Source of the DNA: a virus
Lineage: Duplodnaviria; Heunggongvirae; Uroviricota; Caudoviricetes
Length of the DNA stretch: 15,394 bases
Reading direction: 5' to 3' (one strand)
Virus record (IMG/VR): IMGVR_UViG_2526164633_000052
Part shown: in pieces, positions 1,440 through 13,945 of the stretch
How the letters are laid out: each line of letters begins with the position of its first letter
Numbering within the stretch: the first letter of the stretch is position 1
Program-made: the position numbers and the translations under genes
The notes under the pieces: generated by a model
What the model was told of the DNA's origin: nothing
The model's input: only the letters and a program-made list of their open reading frames with translations
Databases searched by the model: none

Positions 1440-1954
1440 TATCAATGCTATTAGCAGGGAGATATATCACCAGAGTTTAATGTGTGATTTTTTATTTATC
1501 GTCGAACCTGGATTGTTTATCATTGGCCTTAACAAAGTTAACGGCTAATAAGATTATTTCCATCACTTCGTGAGAGCTTCATGCCTTGAGAGGATCTCAA
1601 TTTTCTTTTGCAATGAGACAGGCGCTTCCTGTTGTTATGGTATAGTACCCCGCTATTGAGCCTCCTGAATAGTGATGCTGAATAACATAACCCCATGATA
1701 TATCGATAAAATAATCTCTACATTTGAAAATGCACGGTAATTCTGAAATGCAAAAAATCAACCAAACCAGCGCAATGCCTGAAAAAACTGACGTTCACTG
1801 GAGTGGTCGGTTTAGCGTTGCACCAATGCTCGATAGGATGTACCGTTTTTGAAAAACAACTAGTTATACACTTTGTGGGAGCCTATTGGGAACCTGAAGT
1901 TTTGCTCTTTCTATTCATATCTATTCATAAAGCACCATTTGCTGCCTTATCTGA

Positions 1955-2592: not shown

Positions 2593-3027
2593 ATGCATCT
2601 AGAAGTCTCTATTAATCCAGAAACTAGAGCTGAATTTTTTGATGAAGTTTTTCTCAAATTCCCGGAGCTAGAGTCTTCTATCATTGATGATTTCAAGAGA
2701 TACAAAGCAACCGGTGAGCTTCCGCATTATTTCGGTAGGGACGTTGCGTATACTCAGCCTTATGGTGCTTTTCGGGCTGGGTTGATGCATATCCATCTTT
2801 GTCTACCGCCAAACAAGTTTCCCGAGAAACTTCCACAACCGGATAGGGTCTGCAAGAAAGGTGATCCTGATAATGATGCTTGTCTTGTGTATGTCCAAGG
2901 TGAGCTTTATGAGAATAAATATTCACTCATTGCTATTATGTATCCCGATGCACATGAAAAAGCAAGAAAACATGATGTGATGAGCTATCTGGCGCGAATT
3001 GCCCAGAATTATAAAGATGAAAACTAA
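2593..3027 (+). CDS. YafO-family type II toxin (ribosome-dependent mRNA interferase family)
   Basis: By-eye alignment to E. coli YafO as recalled: YKxxGxLPxxFGRDxxY, HIHL, LVYxQG, LIAIxxPxxHxxAR motifs in the same order and spacing; 144 aa. Confidence 0.7.
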   Translation: MHLEVSINPETRAEFFDEVFLKFPELESSIIDDFKRYKATGELPHYFGRDVAYTQPYGAFRAGLMHIHLCLPPNKFPEKLPQPDRVCKKGDPDNDACLVYVQGELYENKYSLIAIMYPDAHEKARKHDVMSYLARIAQNYKDEN

Positions 3028-3935: not shown

Positions 3936-4486
3936 CACTTCACCTCCTGCGGCGGTTCCGGTAGCGGCATCCAGTGAGTTGCTTGCTCAATACCATTACC
4001 CGGCTTAATCGTTGCATCTCCGCGCCGAAAGGTGCTTCCGGTATAGCGTGCGGAGCATATTAGCGGTTCAACCAGAGAGCTATCGAAATTCACCGAAATA
4101 AGCACGTTCTGGCCCTTTTCAGGCATTCGATCACTACAGATTATCCAACTATCCGGAGTTCCCGGAGAGTTGCCATTTACATCGAAGTTTGGCTCTGCGT
4201 CCTGAACCAGGAGGATGTAACCATTCTTGGCTGTATCAAGTTCTAACGCCTCGGTGACGGTGCCGAAATAGCGATTACCTAAATCAGCATCACAAGTGCT
4301 TACATCAATGGAAACTTCCATGCCTTCGATTAATTCTGGCAAGTTGTAAGTTTGGCTTATAGGCTCTGCTTCCAGCGATGCCAGTGCAATTTCATAAGCA
4401 CGGCGCTCAATATTGTCTCGAACGTCCAGGCCGCCTATGCGCTCTTTGATTTCTTTAATCAGTTCTTTGTCGGTAAAAGTGGTCAT
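3935..4486 (-). CDS. DUF551-domain phage protein
   Basis: C-terminal WIICSDRMPEKGQNVL...HWMPLPEPP is the typical DUF551 signature; translationally coupled (ATGA overlaps) to both neighbours. Confidence 0.7.
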   Translation of the reverse strand: MTTFTDKELIKEIKERIGGLDVRDNIERRAYEIALASLEAEPISQTYNLPELIEGMEVSIDVSTCDADLGNRYFGTVTEALELDTAKNGYILLVQDAEPNFDVNGNSPGTPDSWIICSDRMPEKGQNVLISVNFDSSLVEPLICSARYTGSTFRRGDATIKPGNGIEQATHWMPLPEPPQEVK

Positions 4487-4848
4487 GCTGTAGCCCCTTC
4501 TTGATATTTTTCAAACCAGAACACAACCGGGTCAGATTTCATTTCAACCAATCCCATACGAACCAGCGCCTTGCCTTTCCCGGACGCAAGGAATTCACGA
4601 CGACCATCACTGATAATTCGCCGATAATCTTCCAGGCTACTGCAATGCTTGTGCAGATTGCATGGGTGGCATGCCGGAACCATGTTGGATATATCGTCAC
4701 GTTCCTGGTGAAGCATATTTCCAGCAAAACGAATGACCGGTTTTACATGGTCTGCATGCCACTTTTCGCCAAGTTCGCAGCCGCAATAAGCGCAGCGACC
4801 ACCGAACTTCATGCGCAGTTCTGCACGTTGTTTTTTCGTCAGTGCCAT
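4483..4848 (-). CDS. HNH endonuclease
   Basis: CAYCGCEL...WHADHVKP...VPACHPCNLHK: two Cys pairs plus the H-N-H core; start taken at ATG 4848 (MALTKK...) rather than the ORF-track upstream Met. Confidence 0.75.
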   Translation of the reverse strand: MALTKKQRAELRMKFGGRCAYCGCELGEKWHADHVKPVIRFAGNMLHQERDDISNMVPACHPCNLHKHCSSLEDYRRIISDGRREFLASGKGKALVRMGLVEMKSDPVVFWFEKYQEGATA

Positions 4849-4849
4849 A

Positions 4850-5068
4850 TCAGCTTTCCTTATATGGATTAATTTTATTGTGCAGTGTGTTGAACGACGC
4901 CCATACCACGTCGTTATACAATTCAATAACTGGCTCAATTATTTTCCCGATTGCCCATACCAGAATTAACGGGGATATCGGTATCATCAACACGATAAAC
5001 AGAATGAGAAACAAAAATTCTGTCGCTCTACTTCTTCGCGGATATTCTTTTCTGAATAATGTCGGCAT
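4850..5068 (-). CDS. Small single-pass membrane protein (72 aa)
   Basis: GGAGAG RBS 4-5 nt before ATG 5068; one clear transmembrane segment FLFLILFIVLMIPISPLILVWAIG. Confidence 0.45.
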   Translation of the reverse strand: MPTLFRKEYPRRSRATEFLFLILFIVLMIPISPLILVWAIGKIIEPVIELYNDVVWASFNTLHNKINPYKES

Positions 5069-5069
5069 A

Positions 5070-5261
5070 TCACTCTCCTTTAGTGCGCAAGTGGTTTTCC
5101 CAGCGGTTTTGCGCCGCGCTGGGCTTATCTTTGACTCCCTCTCTGGCAATTCCAGAATATAAGTACAACACCACACGGCGATTGCTAACTCTCAACCACT
5201 GGCAGGGATAGCAACGTCTGTATACACGGGAAATAAGCATCTTTGCTTTACGGTTTTTCAT
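5070..5261 (-). CDS. Small basic protein (63 aa), paralog of the next ORF
   Basis: Starts MKNRKAK; its ATG overlaps the stop of the upstream paralog; shares N-terminus and a diverged KP(S/T)A(A/S)QNR segment with ORF 5258-5434. Confidence 0.4.
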   Translation of the reverse strand: MKNRKAKMLISRVYRRCYPCQWLRVSNRRVVLYLYSGIAREGVKDKPSAAQNRWENHLRTKGE

Positions 5262-5434
5262 CTTACTGCGTACCCTTTCTTTCGCCTGTTCTGTGACGCT
5301 GTAGGCTTACGCTTTGCGGCAAAAGCCACCTGACCAAATGGATGGAGTACTGCTATCTTATGGTTGCTGATAACCAGCTCCACCACACGCACAGGTCGCT
5401 GTAAAAAAAGTCGTTTTGCTTTACGGTTTTTCAT
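5258..5434 (-). CDS. Small basic protein (58 aa, below the ORF-track cutoff), paralog of 5070-5261
   Basis: Hand translation MKNRKAKRLFLQRPVRVVELVISNHKIAVLHPFGQVAFAAKRKPTASQNRRKKGYAVR; AGGAG RBS 9 nt upstream; the first 20 nt are identical to the start of the downstream paralog. Confidence 0.35.
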   Translation of the reverse strand: MKNRKAKRLFLQRPVRVVELVISNHKIAVLHPFGQVAFAAKRKPTASQNRRKKGYAVR

Positions 5435-5606
5435 CGTTTTGCTCTCCTGCGTTTCTTTGCTGCACGTCGTGCAGCTGCAATACCGGTATGGCGGTGCTTT
5501 GGTGCCGGGATGATGTTGTCAGCCATCAGGACATGTGGCTTTGCAATTAGCGCAGAAGCCCAAAAACGAGTCGGGTACGGTAACAAGTCGATACATGCCA
5601 CACGCA

Positions 5607-6236
5607 TTACTCACCTTCTTTGATGCGAATGCCAGCGGCGCGTGGCACATTAACTTCCACGATGCGCACAGTTGGTTTGTACATCTCAATCGCTGTCAGC
5701 CAGTCAGCGCCGGTCATATGCTTTTCTGCATCGCCATTAGTCCATTGAACCGGCACACCAATAGCTTTCATCGCAATTTCTATTTCCCCGGCAATGGCGC
5801 TTTTCCCGCAACCAGTAAAACCAGAGACAACGACAAGAACTTCGCCTTTGGCTGGTTTTATTTCCCGTGCTTCCAGTTCTGCTATGCGCTTCTCTGCGGC
5901 TTCCAGCTTGGCTTCTGCATCTTTGGCTCGCATCTGCCAGTTGATAGCGATGTCGATAACGCTGTTAGCACAACTGGACTCGTTCTCTTCGGCAGCTTTA
6001 GCTTCAGAAAGCTCATCAAGCAATCCAAGAACAACAGTTGGCGTGGCGAGCGTGATAAAACGCATATTGCTCATATGCTCTTCATCGCTGACCTCATCTC
6101 CAGCCTCGACCGCTGCCATGTGCTGAACATAGCCGCTATCACAGGTATTCCAGATTGCCCCTGCCTCGTAACCCCATTCACCATGTAGTGCTTTTTCTGC
6201 CGCCTCACGCAGTGCCTGGTAATTAATTTCGCTCAC
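5607..6236 (-). CDS. Coiled-coil early protein, probably an Ea22-like mosaic-family member (from memory, unverified)
   Basis: GTG start with AGGAGG RBS; N-terminus SEINYQALREAAEKA and central KRIAELE coiled coil; overlaps the stop of the upstream gene. Confidence 0.6.
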   Translation of the reverse strand: MSEINYQALREAAEKALHGEWGYEAGAIWNTCDSGYVQHMAAVEAGDEVSDEEHMSNMRFITLATPTVVLGLLDELSEAKAAEENESSCANSVIDIAINWQMRAKDAEAKLEAAEKRIAELEAREIKPAKGEVLVVVSGFTGCGKSAIAGEIEIAMKAIGVPVQWTNGDAEKHMTGADWLTAIEMYKPTVRIVEVNVPRAAGIRIKEGE

Positions 6237-6913
6237 TGACAGCCTCCTTTGCGAAGCTCTGCAGCGAAATATACAGCTGCGGAAACAATAGCTGCATGTC
6301 GGTATTCACCATCAGAAAAGAGAGAATCTCCCTTAAGTGCATTGACGATACTCTGATGATTTTTTGCCAGCATCTCCACACCCTGCGCCCGTACTTCAGC
6401 CAGGAAAGCATCTGTAGCCGGGGTTTGCGGCATACCTCCGTCTGTTGCGCAGATATACGCATCAGATAGTTCATCCTGCTCGCCATCAAACACGTAGCAA
6501 CTCTGTGCGATAAATTTATTTAGCCCCGCATTCTCCGCCGCCAGCGCCGCGCAATTACCCTCCAGCTCTGCAATGCGCTGTTTTGCAGCATCAAGTTCAA
6601 TCGATAATTTTTCCAACTGCTCTTTATGCTTCTTGTATTCCTGATATGCGTGCCAGGACTGACCTTTGCGCACACTATCAGTAATATCAGTAATCTGTTC
6701 TGGTGTTAGCGTGGTCAGTGGCTGTGCTGGGAAAATCAGCACTTTCCCGGAATCCCAATCAAAACCAGCGTGAATTGACTGAACCTCAACTGAGGGTGTT
6801 GAACCAATGCTGCCAGGCGAATGAACAACGATCGTTACATCCATATCGCGACGATGGCTGTGGTTGTTGGACAAAATACGATTCACCAACTCAGAAAATT
6901 TGGAGAATTTCAT
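6233..6913 (-). CDS. Mosaic coiled-coil phage protein; C-terminal half paralogous to ORF 7329-7907
   Basis: Start taken at ATG 6913 (GAGG RBS 6 nt upstream); contains the 134-bp segment that is repeated in 7594-7727. Confidence 0.6.
   Translation of the reverse strand: MKFSKFSELVNRILSNNHSHRRDMDVTIVVHSPGSIGSTPSVEVQSIHAGFDWDSGKVLIFPAQPLTTLTPEQITDITDSVRKGQSWHAYQEYKKHKEQLEKLSIELDAAKQRIAELEGNCAALAAENAGLNKFIAQSCYVFDGEQDELSDAYICATDGGMPQTPATDAFLAEVRAQGVEMLAKNHQSIVNALKGDSLFSDGEYRHAAIVSAAVYFAAELRKGGCQ
6420..6553. repeat. Copy A of an approximately 134-bp near-identical direct repeat (copy B at 7594-7727)
   Basis: Direct comparison of the two stretches: only a handful of mismatches over about 134 bp; both copies are inside coding sequence and encode ...CAALAAENAGLNKFIAQSCYVFDGEQDELSDAYICA... 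Confidence 0.8.
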
Positions 6914-6921
6914 GCGGAGCC

Positions 6922-7332
6922 TCAATATGCAAAATAGACCGTTGCCACGCCGTTATAGTGATCAAACGATACGGCGTTTACTTCATAGCTGGCAGGGAGC
7001 TTCGAGCCGAGAACATATCCGGGCCACGTTTTCCATGGAATTTCTCTACTCTCACTACCCCCATATACCGTACATCCAAGTGAACCTACAGCCTCGTCAG
7101 AACGTTTGCCGCATGTTATGAAACCTATATTTTTCTTGCTGGTCTTAATGGCGATTGGGTGAACACTGGCTGATGCATTGGCAGCACGCTGTGACTGTTG
7201 GTTTGCGATATTCGCAGAGTTCGCAGCAGCTACAGCAGCCATGGTCGCGGCGGTAGATGCCACAATAACTGCTGAAGCCTGCGCCTGTTGGGTAATGGTC
7301 AGCAATGCCGCCACAAAAATCATCTTCTTCAC
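6922..7332 (-). CDS. Secreted or periplasmic protein with N-terminal signal peptide (136 aa), function unknown
   Basis: GTG start with GGAG RBS 7 nt upstream; MKKMIFVAALLTITQQAQA has the n/h/c regions and an AxA cleavage motif of a Sec signal peptide; Ala/Ser/Asn-rich mature N-terminus. Confidence 0.6.
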   Translation of the reverse strand: MKKMIFVAALLTITQQAQASAVIVASTAATMAAVAAANSANIANQQSQRAANASASVHPIAIKTSKKNIGFITCGKRSDEAVGSLGCTVYGGSESREIPWKTWPGYVLGSKLPASYEVNAVSFDHYNGVATVYFAY

Positions 7333-7907
7333 TTGTCAGCTCCTTTGCGAATCTGTTCCGCCCATTCTTCAAGGGATTTCTCCGCATATTCACCGGACAG
7401 GCCATCAATCGGGTGCGGTTCATTAGCCAACTCTTCTTTCGCTGACAGAATCATGCGCGTAACGTCGAAAACTTCACGTAAAGACTTATTGATAAATCCG
7501 TGGTTGAAAGCAGCAGCAAGACGGCTTGCGGTATAGTTAATCCCCTCGTTGCGAGCCGCCGCACGAATTTCAGCCAAAAAAGCATCGGTGGCTGGGGTTT
7601 GCGGCATCTTTCCGTCTATTGCGCAGATATACGCATCAGATAGCTCATCCTGCTCGCCATCAAACACGTAGCAACTCTGTGCGATAAATTTATTTAGCCC
7701 CGCATTCTCCGCCGCCAGCGCCGCGCACTTGGCCTCAAGGTTATCAATCGTGATTCCAGCAGAACGGCACTCCCGCAACGCCGTTTCTAGTTTTGATTCA
7801 AGTTCACCGAACTTACGCACCAGGTATTCAGCATCCGTTTCATTCACTTTCAGATCTCGCGGTACACATTTCCCGAGAAGAAACCATTCCATTTCGAAAA
7901 CATTCAT
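7329..7907 (-). CDS. Hypothetical coiled-coil phage protein; shares a module with ORF 6233-6913
   Basis: ATG 7907 overlaps the stop of the YfdR-like gene (ATGA); contains repeat copy B. Confidence 0.6.
   Translation of the reverse strand: MNVFEMEWFLLGKCVPRDLKVNETDAEYLVRKFGELESKLETALRECRSAGITIDNLEAKCAALAAENAGLNKFIAQSCYVFDGEQDELSDAYICAIDGKMPQTPATDAFLAEIRAAARNEGINYTASRLAAAFNHGFINKSLREVFDVTRMILSAKEELANEPHPIDGLSGEYAEKSLEEWAEQIRKGADK
7594..7727. repeat. Copy B of the approximately 134-bp direct repeat
   Basis: See copy A; same orientation, 1174 bp apart. Confidence 0.8.
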
Positions 7908-8440
7908 GCGCATTTGCGTAACTCCGATAACTCGTTAAAACGTTCCATAAACATCCCGTAGGCATGGCCTGGTGACAGTGGAATAACTTTGAACATCTCT
8001 GTTGCTGGGATGCCTTCCAGTACAGGCCAGAAAGAGCCATCATCAAGCCCGAGATCGCGGCGTTCGGTTGCCAGCATAATGAGATCGGCATATTTCACTG
8101 GCGTGCTCATAACAGGAGGTAACCCGTATTTCTCACGGATTACGGCGTCTATTTTTTCTTCCATCCGTTTATAGTCAGGAAGAAGGCGTTTCAGTGGCGC
8201 GGGAATGTCCTGGCAATACGCTTCTGTTGCATCATGCATTAACGCTTCAAAAGCAAATTCCTGCGGTACCAGCTGGCTGCAAAGCACCGCATGTTGGGCG
8301 ACGCTGTAGAAGTGTGAAAGATGTCCTGCAAAGCGACAGATATTTGAAAGGGAAACCGCGATATCGTTAATAACGATGTCATCTTTATTTATCTTGTCAT
8401 AATAAAAATGTTTCCCGGAAAAAGTTTTAATAAATGACAT
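7904..8440 (-). CDS. yfdR: HD-domain phosphohydrolase, YfdR-like (5'-deoxynucleotidase family)
   Basis: 178 aa from ATG 8440 (GGAG RBS 7 nt upstream); HD-type motifs (HxxxV...HDAxE...D); size and gene order match the yfdP-yfdQ-yfdR cluster of E. coli CPS-53 as I recall it. Confidence 0.75.
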   Translation of the reverse strand: MSFIKTFSGKHFYYDKINKDDIVINDIAVSLSNICRFAGHLSHFYSVAQHAVLCSQLVPQEFAFEALMHDATEAYCQDIPAPLKRLLPDYKRMEEKIDAVIREKYGLPPVMSTPVKYADLIMLATERRDLGLDDGSFWPVLEGIPATEMFKVIPLSPGHAYGMFMERFNELSELRKCA

Positions 8441-8568
8441 TTCGTTCTCCACTTTATATGCGCTGCACCGCGTTGAATTCTGCTAAAAGGAAGCTCTCAC
8501 CATCCGGTGATTATTGAGTTAATTACGTTTCCATAAATGCCCCCGCAGGGGCATTAGCAGTAATGAAA

Positions 8569-9393
8569 TCAGGCGGTGAAAGTACCAATAAAGGTTTCTA
8601 CTTTGCTGTCTTTGAATTTCTCAACAAGCAGATCACGAAATTCGTTAGCCATTTCTTCCTGCACTGCTTCCAGCTGAATAATGCGCAGAACCAGTACAGG
8701 ACGATCGCCAGTGATAATGCTGAGGCGTAATTTAAACGGACGTTCTTTCAGACCTTCAAACGGAACGCATTTAAATTCAAATGCCACTGGCATAATATCT
8801 TTGGTCTTCGCTTCGACAGACTCCATCAGGGAGCGTTTTCCGCTGAAGTCATTATCTTCAAAATCAGCGGTCTGGTTTGCTTCAATCGTGATTTTACGGA
8901 CAGCCGCAGCCGCTTTTGTTGCCTGAATAGCGTCACCATTAGCATCAAAGCCCACAAGGTAGTCGGCCCAGTCTTCAATCCATTCTGCCAGTGACTTCTG
9001 GGAGTTACGCTCGCCATTAACAGACAACAGAGCAGAAAACGGTGCTGTCTTTTTTAGTTTGAGAGTGGCGGTGTTATCTGCGTGACCTGGTTCATCAATA
9101 GTACCCAGGTTAAGCACACTGACGGCGCGCATATTATCGGCATCGATAAAGCAGCGGGTGCCTTCATCTGCAAGATCTTTAGAATAACGGGTAAAGTCAT
9201 CGATGCTGGCAGTGGAAAGCGCACCACGGAAACGGAAGCGATTTAAATTAAATTTTTCCAGATCATGAATGCGGAAATTCTCAGGCAATGCCACAGCATC
9301 GGCACCAATCTTACTGATAATTTCATTAACACCCTGAGCAGAAATAAGGGCATGGATTTGATTAATTGCGGTTGCGTCTAAGTTCTGAGACAT
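8569..9393 (-). CDS. yfdQ: YfdQ-like DUF2303-family phage protein (274 aa)
   Basis: Length and position (between YfdP-like and YfdR-like genes) match YfdQ; GAGGA RBS upstream of ATG 9393. Confidence 0.7.
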
Positions 9394-9458
9394 AATAAGT
9401 CCTCACTATATAAAGATATTCAGTGATGAGATAAATAATCAGTTAATTAAGAACGATA

Positions 9459-9821
9459 TTAATGACCTGCTGCGCGGAGTTTTCCGTCAGGTTCACCGGC
9501 AAGAGTCAGTAATTGTCCCTGGTCTTCCTGCAGAATAGTCAGGCGACCACCGCGATTGACATACATCGGCGTTTCGGTGGTGTCTTCTTCGGAAATTTTC
9601 CCGCGGTTAGTTGGGCGAACATATGAGAGTTTGTGTTTGATTTTCACACGGTTCTCATCAAACGGTTCGATTTCCAGATTGAGTGAGACCTTCCCTTTGG
9701 TTTTCGTGTTCATCACACCGGAAGCGACTTCACTGAGAACTGCGCCGATTTTGGTTTCAAATACGCCGCCGTCCAGCTCCCCGATAAATGCCTGCACATC
9801 AGTACTGCGTTCGCTAGCCAT
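9459..9821 (-). CDS. YfdP-like small phage protein (120 aa); first gene of the leftward early operon
   Basis: Start set at ATG 9821 (MASERSTDVQ...) with GAGGAG RBS 7 nt upstream; the ORF-track extension to 10007 is Cys/Arg-rich and contains RNA hairpins, so it is unlikely to be coding. Confidence 0.6.
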   Translation of the reverse strand: MASERSTDVQAFIGELDGGVFETKIGAVLSEVASGVMNTKTKGKVSLNLEIEPFDENRVKIKHKLSYVRPTNRGKISEEDTTETPMYVNRGGRLTILQEDQGQLLTLAGEPDGKLRAAGH

Positions 9822-12068: not shown

Positions 12069-12901
12069 ACAGTTTAACGGCAAATAACCGTTTGTCGCAA
12101 CAGCTGGTGGTCAGCGTCGCTGAACACCTGTTGTTACGGCATGAATGCAGATTACCAAATCACCTGGCTGTAAGTAACCACAGAGAACTTTACCTGACTG
12201 TGGGGGGCGAGTTGTGCAGGAACTTAACCGCTGGTTTCGTGACGGAAGAGGACTTTATGTTCATGTTATTCGTTGGGAGCCAGAAACACAGCGCGTTATC
12301 TATCTTCGCAAAGACTACCCGCATGAGTGCTTTAGTCCTTTGTGGAAATTCAGGCGTGATTTTGTTGAGTGTGAAGGACCACCAGCACATTGATTCTGCC
12401 ATTCCGGGACGTTACACTGTTCAGGCACCTTATAAAGCGGGTGCCGGGATTGGCGTCCTGGAATTGATCAAGGCGATATATGACGCGCCAGCGTCTTTTT
12501 TATCGTCCGCATTTGCTCACATCAAAGTTATGGTGGGCTGGGCGGGGGCATCGAAAGATGCGCCGGTTTCCTTGATCACCGGTTACGCCAACCCCGTTCA
12601 GTTCACCACCAGCGAAATTGGCGTTTCCGGTGGTGGAAGTATTTCACCGATCAAGGAGGCTGCCATCATGGCTACTGTCCCAGCCCTCACTCGTCTGAAT
12701 GATGAAGACTTACATAAACTCAGTTATGTAACAACTGCACTACGTGCTCTGCGCAAGGTAACTCTTTCGGATCCCCAGGCGCATCAGGTTTTGGTAGAAA
12801 CCCTTCTTAACTTGCAGGCTGAACGTATTCGTCTGGCGGATAAGGCTAATTTTCATATTCACCGTCTCCTGAATATCAGCGGAGGGCATCGTCATGCTTA
12901 A
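12065..12901 (+). CDS. Hypothetical protein (278-aa ORF); gene structure uncertain
   Basis: Long open frame translationally coupled to both neighbours (ATGA at 12065; downstream ATG 12894 overlaps its end); no family recognised; 12178-12402 is open in three frames. Confidence 0.4.
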   Translation: MNSLTANNRLSQQLVVSVAEHLLLRHECRLPNHLAVSNHRELYLTVGGELCRNLTAGFVTEEDFMFMLFVGSQKHSALSIFAKTTRMSALVLCGNSGVILLSVKDHQHIDSAIPGRYTVQAPYKAGAGIGVLELIKAIYDAPASFLSSAFAHIKVMVGWAGASKDAPVSLITGYANPVQFTTSEIGVSGGGSISPIKEAAIMATVPALTRLNDEDLHKLSYVTTALRALRKVTLSDPQAHQVLVETLLNLQAERIRLADKANFHIHRLLNISGGHRHA

Positions 12902-13130
12902 TCCGTTGAGCCTCAATATTCGCCGTTTACTTCAGCGTAAAAAAACATCAATTCCTACAGTTGGGCAGTGGTACACCACGCCTGCAGGGCATGTTCTACG
13001 TGTTAGCCTGGTTGACCGTGAATGCCAGAAGGTGATTTGTGAACCGCTGGGCCGTAATTACCGCGTCAGTATGCCGCTTATAGCCTTTCGCTCCGGAAAA
13101 AACATGAAGCATCTCGGAGGTGCAGCATGA
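12894..13130 (+). CDS. Hypothetical small protein (78 aa)
   Basis: Strong GGAGG RBS 8 nt before ATG 12894; stop overlaps the start of the O-like gene (ATGA). Confidence 0.45.
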   Translation: MLNPLSLNIRRLLQRKKTSIPTVGQWYTTPAGHVLRVSLVDRECQKVICEPLGRNYRVSMPLIAFRSGKNMKHLGGAA

Positions 13131-13945
13131 GTATGGAGCTGATGGTTAAAGCGATGAAAATTCGAGTGGGTAATCCATTGCGAAAACTGGTTCTGATCAA
13201 GCTGGCTGATAATGCCAGCGATCAGGGTGAGTGCTGGCCCAGCTATCAGCATATCGCTGATCAGTGCGAGATTAGCAAACGTTCTGTGATGAATCATATT
13301 GCGGCCCTCTGTGAGTCCGGGCTGGTAAAAAAAGTCACCCGGAAAGGTGAAAAAGGTAACTCAAGTAATATCTATCTCCTTCATCTGGATGGTGCAGGAG
13401 ATTCACTAGGGGGTAGTGCAAATAATTCACTATCTGGTGCAGCAAATTCACCAGGTAGTGCAGGAGTTGCACCAGGGGGTAGTGCAGGAGATTCACCCAG
13501 AACCAGTCACTCTTTTGAACCAGTCAAAGAACCAGTCAATGAACCAATAGCTGTTGGTGCATCAGTTGATGAGTCCGTGCGAGTTCGTTCAAACCGACCG
13601 GAATACTCTCCGGAGTTTGAGCAGGCATGGCTGGCATATCCCAAACGTGCTGGTGGCAATTCAAAATCTGCAGCCTTCAAAGCCTGGAAAGCCCGTTTGA
13701 ACGAGGGGGTAAACCCCGAAACCATGCTGGAAGGTGTGAAACGCTACGCGGGCTGGGTATCTGCGATGGGTAACAGCGGCACACAATTTGTGAAACAGGC
13801 TGTCACGTTCTTTGGTCCGGATCGTCATTTCGAAGAATCCTGGGAAGTTCCTGCGATATCTGCAGCCAGACGCGAGGACCCGTACTTCAAAGCCAGTTAC
13901 GACAACGTGGACTACAGCCAGATCCCGGCAGGATTCAGGGGGTGA
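13127..13945 (+). CDS. Phage replication initiator (lambda O-like architecture): N-terminal winged-HTH domain, low-complexity linker, C-terminal domain
   Basis: N-terminus LRKLVLIKLADNASDQGECWPSYQHIADQCEISKRSVMNHIAAL resembles HTH-type phage replication proteins; iteron-like DNA repeats lie within the Gly/Ser/Ala-rich linker. Confidence 0.7.
   Translation: MSMELMVKAMKIRVGNPLRKLVLIKLADNASDQGECWPSYQHIADQCEISKRSVMNHIAALCESGLVKKVTRKGEKGNSSNIYLLHLDGAGDSLGGSANNSLSGAANSPGSAGVAPGGSAGDSPRTSHSFEPVKEPVNEPIAVGASVDESVRVRSNRPEYSPEFEQAWLAYPKRAGGNSKSAAFKAWKARLNEGVNPETMLEGVKRYAGWVSAMGNSGTQFVKQAVTFFGPDRHFEESWEVPAISAARREDPYFKASYDNVDYSQIPAGFRG
13391..13550. repeat. Iteron-like tandem repeats (candidate replication origin) inside the O-like gene
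   Basis: About five tandem 21-24-bp units sharing attcac...ggtagtgcagga (13391-13500), then three or four copies of gaaccagtca at 11-16-bp spacing (13501-13550). Confidence 0.55.

Follow-up and report, generated by a model that had tools for sequence, protein, structure and literature searches.

The window analysed here (the whole stretch of DNA examined, 15,394 nt) carries a near-identical direct repeat that is, with good probability, formed by two copies (A and B) of one in-frame protein-coding module, named M (~45-63 codons). The copies lie in two genes of an E. coli prophage early-left operon that flank a signal-peptide gene. On balance of all the evidence, it is likely that the repeat was generated by mosaic recombination and that conversion or crossover between the copies followed.

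Repeat, reading frames and operon

A 134-bp near-identical direct repeat shared by two genes, as the earlier note had claimed, was confirmed by self-comparison, the check proposed there: the two cores have the same orientation with a start-to-start spacing of 1174 bp and differ at 5 of 134 positions (6434-6436, 6444 and 6470; 96.3% identity), the longest perfect run being 83 bp. The base composition of the core is balanced (C43 T33 G30 A28) and the match is therefore not of low complexity. The repeat search reported an extended form of the repeat (189 nt, 89%) as one family. The arrangement is found in two independent complete genomes and in two IMG/VR contigs, and is thus not an assembly artefact. 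The flanks had been called unrelated, which holds insofar as identity at the 1174 offset drops to the random level (17-37%) within ~30 nt on both sides; however, towards lower coordinates ~72% similarity persists for ~34 nt past the core (the TPATDAFLAEVRA junction), and a short ...RKG... motif terminates both genes.

Table 1. Coordinates of the repeat copies, the genes that carry them and neighbouring features
Feature	Position	Strand	Remarks
Copy A of module M (core)	6420..6553	minus	residues 121-165 of the 226-aa protein (CAALAAENAGLNKFIAQSCYVFDGEQDELSDAYICATDGGMPQT...); extended 6386-6574
Copy B of module M (core)	7594..7727	minus	residues 63-107 of the 194-aa protein (...AYICAIDGKMPQT...); extended 7560-7748
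Putatively homogenised tract, copy A	6471..6553	minus	83 nt, no mismatch to 7645-7727; Leu CTA codon at 6521 is synonymous and specific to this lineage
Putatively homogenised tract, copy B	7645..7727	minus	contains 7695, 7722 and 7725, where B is unlike the plasmid ortholog and like copy A
Downstream M-bearing gene, 226 aa, WP_000672518 'hypothetical'	6233..6913	minus	N1 (~1-120) + M + C1 (~177-226)
Upstream M-bearing gene, 194 aa, intact ORF	7329..7913	minus	N2 (1-62) + M + C2 (119-194)
Signal-peptide protein gene, 136 aa, phrog_8805	6922..7332	minus	between the repeats
Tract colinear with phage-plasmid pKOr024_2	6526..7728	minus	1203 bp, 5 mismatches, 99.6%
Ead_Ea22 gene, next downstream	5607..6236	minus	Pfam Ead_Ea22 E = 3.8e-15; GTG start overlaps the stop of the 226-aa gene
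Gene-end junction motif ...ELRKGG.Q	6244..6265	minus	recurs at 7340-7361 and 5879-5900 (repeat family D4)
HNH endonuclease gene	4483-4848		nearby, in the minus-strand gene order

Both copies are in-frame within minus-strand ORFs (Table 1). When the two proteins are compared by BLASTP, residues 81-176 of the 226-aa protein align with residues 23-118 of the 194-aa protein (E = 4e-39) and nothing else is aligned. High nucleotide identity between otherwise unrelated genes would also suit a repeat that is conserved for the nucleic acid itself (a regulatory site, small RNA or structured RNA) instead of for the protein it encodes. We regard this as extremely improbable: no Rfam family was found in 5500-8600, the folding energy is no better than that of shuffled controls on both strands (z = +0.25 to -1.14), no promoter-like or terminator-like sites are present on the coding strand, and the repeat is in-frame in both genes with a pN/pS of 0.28 (16 nucleotide alleles). 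The idea of a structured RNA in particular was rejected by the Rfam and folding results. M is under coding constraint, given its pN/pS.

The genes on the minus strand are ordered as repressor, yfdP, yfdQ, yfdR, the 194-aa gene, the signal-peptide gene, the 226-aa gene, an Ea22-like gene, HNH, DUF551, 3'-5' exonuclease and PrtN. This is the early-left (exo-xis-equivalent) accessory region of a temperate phage, the setting of Ead/Ea22 genes. The start of the signal-peptide gene overlaps the upstream stop (GTGA), and the codons of the gene-end junction motif also provide the Shine-Dalgarno sequence AAAGGAGG and the GTGA overlap. The signal-peptide gene is 98-99.5% identical in phage-plasmids and in a sister prophage; a promoter and terminator scan found none of its own, by which its status as an autonomous moron was rejected.

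Both repeat-bearing proteins match PHROG families piecewise. The 226-aa protein matches phrog_368 and phrog_6026 (the latter through N1), the 194-aa protein matches phrog_614 over its full length, N2 matches phrog_583 and phrog_614, and phrog_368 is matched piecewise by all three window proteins. An identical product of the 194-aa gene is annotated in the DEC12A/B assemblies; in RefSeq, PGAP marks only 7791-7913, as a pseudogene fragment, and the gene is wrongly cut in this way since annotation by family fails on its mosaic structure. A PDB sequence search with both repeat-bearing proteins gave no match below E = 0.1, and PADLOC gave no defence-system match among six operon proteins.

An AlphaFold2 (AF2) model of the 194-aa protein (monomer, 55-sequence alignment) predicts a helix at residues 25-84 (pLDDT 75-82) and a helical C-terminal domain that starts at residue 110 (110-163), with a linker of low confidence between them (~80-106). 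This is a model of modest confidence (mean pLDDT 62, pTM 0.30); a single-sequence run with a pLDDT of 41 was discarded. The predicted layout may correspond to the scheme of coiled coil, mobile segment and C-terminal domain of lambda Ea22 (PMC10834534).

Module exchange and kinship with Ea22-like proteins

M has a variable middle that is bracketed by near-invariant motifs, ALAAENA upstream and TPATDAFLAE(V/I)RA downstream, and is flanked by unrelated N- and C-terminal modules that are freely recombined in other prophages, Stx phages and ~92-kb phage-plasmids. According to alignments and nucleotide mapping of the compared sequences, N1 is seen again in L002, L003, L007, L011 and L013, N2 in L004, L006, L009 and L010, C1 in L004, L005 and L006, and C2 in L002, L007, L010, L011 and L012. 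All four modules are thus also found in different arrangements, and M is part of many architectures, which bears out the module exchange read from the repeat in the earlier note. Among 5,426 E. coli genomes, 174 contain the M core, at 144 chromosomal and 51 plasmid places, and the genes concerned carry the names hypothetical, ead/Ea22-like or Eae. The 194-aa protein has more than 7,800 related protein clusters; when the 56-aa module was the sole protein query, the search yielded just 8 short fragments and was useless for a census of architectures.

The mosaic breakpoints fall at the edges of M. Identity to L007 (the 1203-bp tract shared with pKOr024_2) collapses at 6525, inside copy A, and at 7729, at the upstream edge of copy B; identity to L011 collapses at ~6393 and ~7600 and identity to L003 at ~6566 and ~7600 (window coordinates). 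A discrete mobile cassette with fixed ends is unlikely, as the ends of the high-identity tract differ in L003, L007, L008 and L011. A related reading, to which we give little credence, is that the N1 half-gene, the signal-peptide gene and the C2 half-gene together form a homology-guided cassette that enters an M-containing Ea22-like gene at M and leaves by recombination of the repeats. If so, the target gene would be split into two in-frame chimeras flanked by direct M repeats, and M would act as a portable attachment sequence that moves a secreted-protein gene between lambdoid prophages and P1-related phage-plasmids.

The assignment of both genes to the Ea22-like mosaic family stands in part. 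Neither the 226-aa nor the 194-aa protein matches PF13935 at E ≤ 0.1 (gathering score 27 bits) or any NCBIfam model, and the neighbour encoded at 5607-6236 is the only protein here that passes PF13935 (57.1 bits). Among 55 relatives of the 194-aa protein, only 7 contain PF13935. Kinship with Pfam-positive Ead_Ea22 members is nevertheless found through common modules: in ORF15 of Stx2a phage P13374, M and C2 come after an N-terminus that matches Pfam Ead_Ea22 (E = 2e-15). The term 'Ea22-like' thus holds for the two proteins at the level of shared modules only.

They resemble Ead/Ea22 proteins (PF13935 / IPR025153) in their location in a temperate prophage and in their construction from mosaic blocks (PMC10834534), and may resemble them in the succession of N-terminal segment, coiled coil, linker and variable C-terminal domain, which is predicted here by a model of modest confidence, and many of their relatives are named ead/Ea22-like by NCBI. 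Unlike Ead/Ea22 proteins, they stay below PF13935, differ in their N-terminal modules and are without the C-terminal domain of lambda Ea22. The ea22 genes have already been termed mosaic in published work, while pro-lysogenic activity and tetrameric assembly are reported only for lambda Ea22 and a few Stx phage proteins (PMC10834534).

Probable exchange between the two copies

Over the upper 83 nt of the core, copies A and B show 0 differences from each other, against at least 2 for each of the 20 other copies. Site 6521/7695 is a T in both (Leu CTA, synonymous) and a C (CTG) in all 20 others. The exact full-length 83-mer occurs in 2 of 109 tract-bearing genomes, both with two copies. In addition, 3 of the 5 differences that separate copy B and its surroundings from L007 over 1203 positions fall in the interval 7695-7725, and at each of these three sites B has the base of copy A (binomial P ~0.003). 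The tract and the synonymous CTA codon common to both copies agree with the gene conversion suggested in the earlier note, and comparison of the alleles supports the view that the copies partly overwrote each other. Three or four informative sites in a single lineage carry this reading: every double-copy assembly (2 RefSeq genomes, L023/L024 and L032) represents the same prophage at 99.96% identity, giving no replication of the conversion in independent lineages.

Two readings dispense with such an interaction. In the first, the genes acquired M independently from donors that shared the same M allele, so that module exchange took place without intragenomic conversion. The lower 51 nt of copy A are the same as in L018 and L020, and those of copy B the same as in L007 and L022; since these halves match different alleles, the two genes have separate ancestries. 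The lower half of B together with C2 is identical to plasmid L007, and an unsampled donor with the same 83-mer could have seeded both copies separately. Yet the upper 83-mer is present in 0 of 20 other copies and in 0 of 107 other tract-bearing genomes, and copy B leaves its 99.6%-identical ortholog exactly where it matches copy A. Independent acquisition is therefore held to be unlikely, though it is the best placed of the rival readings.

The second invokes no recent exchange at all, M being an old domain that purifying selection on the protein has kept alike in ancient paralogues. The coding constraint on M and the near-invariance of its bracketing motifs across the family are in line with this; however, mean synonymous divergence among M alleles is 0.165, yet the copies show no difference over 83 nt and share a private synonymous variant, and nucleotide identity falls from 96-100% to random within ~30 nt although the neighbouring codons are also coding. 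Selection on protein alone is rejected because it cannot yield this synonymous-site pattern and the abrupt drop in identity, which leaves the old-domain reading a very small probability.

We therefore return to mosaic recombination followed by conversion or crossover, for which the following course can be proposed. M would be part of a mosaic Ea22-like accessory gene pool in the early-left operons of enterobacterial temperate phages, where it would connect the coiled-coil part at the N-terminus with a C-terminal domain that varies. Homologous recombination at short common motifs may couple unrelated N- and C-terminal modules in-frame; the enzyme could be RecA or a phage Rad52-like recombinase, the latter being the more efficient on short diverged DNA. 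Exchange with phage-plasmid-like DNA would then have set the N2-M-C2 and N1-M-C1 genes on either side of the conserved signal-peptide gene. In a later interaction of the copies, a short conversion tract or a crossover inside M may have rendered the upstream 83 nt identical, while the downstream 51 nt would have retained two different alleles. A part in stimulating the conversion is conceivable for the nearby HNH endonuclease gene. The repeat, its reading frame, the module map, the breakpoints at the edges of M and the derived tract common to both copies are direct observations, whereas the recombination enzymes and the order of these events are inferred, as would be any protein function; a recombinase was looked for in vain in the 15,394-nt window.

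Exchange of intragenic fragments of ~100 bp is common in temperate phages, and Rad52-like recombinases act on short diverged homology (PMC3945230). The present case resembles the mosaics of De Paepe et al. 2014 (PMC3945230), which are short segments (~100-1200 bp) of >90-99% identity that lie within genes, have short borders of partial homology and involve prophages; segment size and identity here are within their distribution (median 404 bp, 96%). It differs from those phages in that the same mosaic unit is present twice in one genome, which was called unusual there, and in that one partner is a P1-related phage-plasmid, whereas that study found no recent mosaics between lambda-like phages and P1, P2 or Mu except via defective prophages (PMC3945230). 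As in concerted evolution or gene conversion of bacterial paralogues, a tract is identical between paralogues and differs from all orthologues, a derived synonymous site is shared and a breakpoint lies inside the repeat. Unlike usual concerted evolution, the tract is at most 83 nt, and the pattern points to one event, confined to one lineage, that involved two genes with no other relationship.

Possible deletion between the repeats, and significance

The repeats had also been put forward as a substrate for RecA-dependent deletion of the intervening ~1.2 kb, offering a built-in route to phase-like variation. Physically they are adequate: they are direct, have an 83-bp perfect run (the minimum being ~25-30 bp) and are spaced by 1174 bp (thresholds from PMC7145654 and PMC3945230). 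Such a deletion of 1174 bp is physically plausible; it would take out the signal-peptide gene and leave N2-M-C1 as an in-frame fusion. Dependence on RecA is not the best expectation, as RecA-independent template switching is a prominent deletion route for direct repeats of <200 bp within a few kb (PMC7145654). The nearest experimental parallel is the deletion substrate pSTL74, with 101-bp direct repeats 1.4 kb apart (PMC7145654), which shares a repeat length of ~100 bp, a distance of ~1.2-1.4 kb, homology above the minimum and a proximity-sensitive range. Repeats of that type are engineered, perfect, multicopy and under selection (PMC7145654), whereas those described here are 96% identical, single-copy and chromosomal, with no deletion product observed.

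A query with the deletion junction against 5,426 complete E. coli genomes returned only parental loci at 75% cover and diverged N2-x-C1 genes (~82%). Gapped patterns of the deletion junction and the reciprocal junction each gave 0 matches in IMG/VR and in the metagenome set, where the parental arrangement itself is almost absent. The parental junctions, used as control, occur in ~4 assemblies of the same prophage and in 0 metagenome contigs, and because they are so confined the missing deletion junctions are weak evidence. Of the deletion claim, then, the suitability of the repeats stands, with no deletion junction found in a sample of ~4 parental assemblies.

The claim of phase-like variation is not upheld, because the deletion is irreversible; it would be an occasional accident and no switch. 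A built-in switch would require the repeats to recombine at a useful frequency, drop the signal-peptide gene and fuse the flanking genes, producing phase-like heterogeneity. Besides the geometry and the in-frame product, such a reading could appeal to the natural N2-x-C1 genes (L004, L006), to the copies having probably recombined with each other at least once and to the plasmid substrates that do delete (PMC7145654). We nevertheless judge it highly doubtful: no reciprocal junction was found in the collections searched, the arrangement is intact in 4 of 4 carrying assemblies, the repeats are without a site-specific recombinase or adjoining recombinase gene, an invertible segment or a simple-sequence tract, no alternative state was found, and the signal-peptide gene is translationally coupled in the operon and no separately regulated unit.

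Novelty is low, the locus being a well-documented case of known phage mosaicism that leaves the current understanding of phage evolution unchanged. It provides a clean example, at single-nucleotide resolution, of intragenic module shuffling with breakpoints at short conserved motifs at domain boundaries, and a rare case of the same module occurring twice in one prophage with copies that were probably altered by a short gene conversion. The 1.2-kb tract of 99.6% identity furthermore ties a chromosomal lambdoid-type prophage to ~92-kb phage-plasmids, which points to recent gene flow between them.

Repeat and shared protein module

A repeat search of the window found one family with two members, 6386-6574 and 7560-7748 (189 nt, 89% identity, direct, 1174 nt from start to start). 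Within its 134-bp core, copies A and B differ at five sites (6434-6436, 6444 and 6470), giving 96.3% identity and a longest perfect run of 83 bp (6471-6553 and 7645-7727). At the 1174 offset, identity is 97-100% in the core, 73-80% in the ~34 nt adjoining it at lower coordinates, and no better than random (17-37%) outside. A match of such quality cannot arise by chance in a 15-kb window. It is not of low complexity, since the base composition is balanced, nor an assembly artefact, since two independent complete genomes and two IMG/VR contigs show the same arrangement. The near-identical direct repeat described in the earlier note is thus confirmed, with 5 of 134 positions mismatched, identity not below 90% and both copies in the same orientation.

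Both copies are in frame and encode CAALAAENAGLNKFIAQSCYVFDGEQDELSDAYICA(T/I)DG(G/K)MPQTPATDAFLAE(V/I)RA, here called module M. As previously claimed, they lie within two different genes: BLASTP between the 226-aa and 194-aa proteins yields a sole alignment, residues 81-176 versus 23-118 (E = 4e-39). Relatives reveal the layout, in which M is flanked by N1 and C1 in the 226-aa protein and by N2 and C2 in the 194-aa protein. The motifs ALAAENA and TPATDAFLAE, which bracket the variable middle, are nearly invariant across the family, as is the terminal RKG motif. An AF2 model of modest quality (55 homologues, mean pLDDT 62) shows a long helix predicted with confidence (25-84); the middle of M (80-106) scores low, and a helical C-terminal domain begins at TPATDAFLAE. 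On this basis M is predicted to span the linker that joins the coiled coil to the C-terminal domain, the place at which a mobile segment has been reported in lambda Ea22, decoupling the C-terminal domain of that protein (PMC10834534). PDB sequence searches found no solved-structure relatives for the two M-bearing proteins.

Operon and prophage setting

The window is an E. coli prophage. In the regions queried it matches strain FDAARGOS_1059 at 100% identity and O111:H2 strain 12A at 99.8-100%; these are the only 2 of 5,426 complete E. coli genomes with the complete 5000-9500 arrangement. It adjoins a dusA fragment downstream of zur. Because this 105-nt piece of the tRNA-dihydrouridine synthase gene marks the left prophage end, together with comparison sequence L001 (1-2835), integration into dusA is suggested. 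The fragment follows dinF, yjbJ, zur and a frameshifted DUF2713 gene, and a YafO-family toxin gene lies immediately inside the prophage end.

All genes surrounding the repeat are on the minus strand in a densely packed early-left operon, ordered LexA-like repressor, yfdP, yfdQ, yfdR, 194-aa ORF, 136-aa signal-peptide protein, 226-aa protein, Ead/Ea22-like protein, three small ORFs, HNH, DUF551, 3'-5' exonuclease and PrtN. Neighbouring genes overlap by a GTGA stop/start, and the Shine-Dalgarno of each downstream gene lies within the final codons (...RKGG.Q) of the preceding one; in proteins of this gene pool the conserved C-terminal ...LRKGG.Q also encodes the Shine-Dalgarno AAAGGAG[G] and the GTGA of the following gene. 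Lying where genes meet, this third short conserved junction could direct the exchange of whole genes. The small ORFs (63, 58 and 58 aa) are consecutive with 4-nt overlaps and all very basic; two of the three start with MKNRKAK, a 39-nt repeat lies at two of the starts (families D3 and D6), and they look like tandem paralogues.

The 136-aa product, with a signal peptide, an Ala/Asn/Ser-rich segment and a two-Cys C-terminal domain (phrog_8805), is a predicted secreted accessory protein with zero matches in Pfam, NCBIfam and PADLOC. Between prophages and phage-plasmids its gene keeps 98-99.5% nucleotide identity, and a scan of the coding strand found no promoter-like or terminator-like site isolating it. 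The intact 194-aa ORF is coupled in translation to both yfdR and the signal-peptide gene and has full-length homologues (phrog_614); E. coli DEC12A/B carry an annotated product identical to it. In the RefSeq record of identical sequence, the PGAP annotation is restricted to 7791-7913, labelled a pseudogene fragment 'missing C-terminus', and the gene fares no better in O26:H11 and other relatives, apparently because annotation by family fails on its mosaic structure.

Further along, an isrK Hfq-binding RNA (64 bits, Rfam) stands immediately before a C4 antisense RNA (82 bits, Rfam), the P1/P7-type antirepressor-control RNA, located here within or upstream of a gene annotated 'ash family protein'. 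Three imperfect 39-nt repeats (62-82% identity, spacing 24 and 42) encode a low-complexity Gly/Ser/Ala-rich segment of a 272-aa ORF (RefSeq: helix-turn-helix domain protein). As to other readings of the 134-bp repeat, a structured RNA or regulatory element was rejected (no Rfam match in the region; folding z = +0.25 to -1.14, not better than shuffled), as was a defence system (zero PADLOC matches among six operon proteins).

Features of the window and identity breaks against related sequences
Feature	Position	Strand	Remark
dusA fragment	~1730-1834		left prophage end
YafO-family toxin gene	2593-3027		
Small ORFs	5070-5261, 5258-5434, 5431-5607	-	
Ead/Ea22-like protein gene	5607-6236	-	Pfam PF13935 match
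226-aa protein gene	6233-6913	-	N1 + M + C1
Copy A	6420-6553		in 226-aa gene
136-aa signal-peptide protein gene	6922-7332	-	between the repeats
194-aa ORF	7329-7913	-	N2 + M + C2
Copy B	7594-7727		in 194-aa gene
LRKGG.Q gene-end junction (family D4)	6244-6265, 7340-7361, 5879-5900	-	
isrK RNA	12425-12501	+	
C4 antisense RNA	12526-12613	+	
272-aa ORF	13127-13945		
39-nt imperfect repeats	13392-13496	+	inside 272-aa ORF
L007 (plasmid pKOr024_2) identity breaks	6525; 7729		inside copy A; edge of copy B
L011 (phage-plasmid) identity breaks	~6393; 7600		high break at other edge of copy B
L003 (strain 442/2) identity breaks	~6566; 7600		

Module exchange and the phage-plasmid link

The module exchange that had been proposed is borne out by relatives carrying N1, N2, C1 and C2 in other combinations, with breakpoints at the edges of M. 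N1 occurs with another tail in strain 442/2 (L003), O111:H8 (L002) and a Punavirus (L013), N2 with another middle and C1 in L004 and L006, and C2 with other N-termini in phage-plasmids L007 and L011; a 116-aa protein of L002 fuses the first ~36 residues of N2 straight to C2. Of 5,426 E. coli genomes, 174 carry the M core itself (93-100% identity), in 144 chromosomal and 51 plasmid locations.

Window positions 6526-7728 (1203 bp) are colinear with L007 2501-3703, on the ~92-kb plasmid pKOr024_2, with 5 mismatches (99.6%). Typed as non-mobilizable, this plasmid encodes phd/doc, ref, tail genes and ParM; the closest classified phage with these modules is a Punavirus. Given this identity and related tracts on 272 PLSDB plasmids (268 non-mobilizable) from Escherichia, Salmonella, Shigella and Klebsiella, the sequences point to genes having moved recently between lambdoid-type prophages and P1-related phage-plasmids.

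Judging by the break positions in L007, L011 and L003, the conserved unit is the N1 half-gene, the signal-peptide gene and the C2 half-gene, with M attached on one side (L011), the other (L007), neither (L003) or both (the window). The edges of M are where the breakpoints concentrate, at variable positions, as expected of homologous recombination at short shared stretches. That this unit moves as a homology-guided cassette with M as its portable attachment sequence is very improbable; the variable positions speak against it. For recombination at short shared stretches, De Paepe et al. gave a median mosaic of 404 bp with 96% identity, found that intragenic fragments of ~100 bp are often exchanged and assigned the predominant role to Rad52-like recombinases where homology is short or diverged (PMC3945230).

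The assignment of both genes to the Ea22-like family proved loosely right, holding at the module level but not strictly. Pfam Ead_Ea22 (PF13935) and the NCBIfam models gave no match for either M-bearing protein; of the three window proteins only the downstream neighbour matches PF13935, as do just 7 of 55 sampled relatives. However, all three match phrog_368 piecewise, and ORF15 of O104:H4 Stx2a phage P13374 joins a Pfam-positive Ead_Ea22 N-terminus to M and then C2. Related protein clusters number >7,800, under names such as ead/Ea22-like, DUF4752 domain-containing, Eae and hypothetical.

Probable conversion between the copies and possible deletion

Twenty-two distinct M copies were compared (A, B and 20 others). 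All five sites separating A from B fall in the lower 51 nt, where A equals L018 and L020 (identical, two IMG/VR copies) and B equals L007 and L022 (identical). The upper 83 nt are identical in A and B and differ from each of the 20 others at at least two sites; at 6521/7695 both have T (Leu CTA) where all 20 have C (CTG), a synonymous change. As pS is 0.165 and pN/pS 0.28 across M alleles, protein-level selection cannot account for the zero synonymous differences, and the synonymous-site pattern contradicts an ancient conserved domain without exchange. Three of the 5 sites separating copy B from its plasmid ortholog over 1203 bp lie within 7695-7725, all in the copy-A state (binomial P ~0.003). 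In the simplest reading, on few informative sites and one prophage, the shared 83 nt would stem from conversion over a short tract, or from a crossover within M, between A and B in this lineage. An unsampled donor allele is a less likely source of the tract. Among 109 tract-bearing E. coli genomes, the exact full-length 83-mer occurs in only the two double-copy genomes, twice each, and the next best full-length match is 97.6%. All double-copy assemblies represent one prophage. The gene conversion suggested earlier is supported by the 83-nt identity, the shared CTA and the departures of copy B towards A.

The repeat has the physical properties needed for deletion (direct, 83-bp perfect run, 1.2-kb spacing), and the predicted product would be an in-frame N2-M-C1 gene without the signal-peptide gene. 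The earlier note was right about this substrate, but its RecA dependence is not the best expectation, because RecA-independent template switching is described as a prominent source of deletions between direct repeats <200 bp that lie within a few kb, with pSTL74 (101-bp repeats, 1.4 kb apart) as a close analogue (PMC7145654). Neither the deletion junction nor the reciprocal junction was found in 5,426 E. coli genomes, IMG/VR or a metagenome collection, an effective sample of about four assemblies; this says little, since the parental junctions, used as controls, occur solely in contigs of the same prophage (0 metagenome contigs). The suggested phase-like variation is unsupported: a deletion would be irreversible and nothing like a switch mechanism is present.

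Mosaic ea22 genes in Stx phages have already been published (PMC10834534). The repeat is a well-resolved further example of known phage mosaicism.
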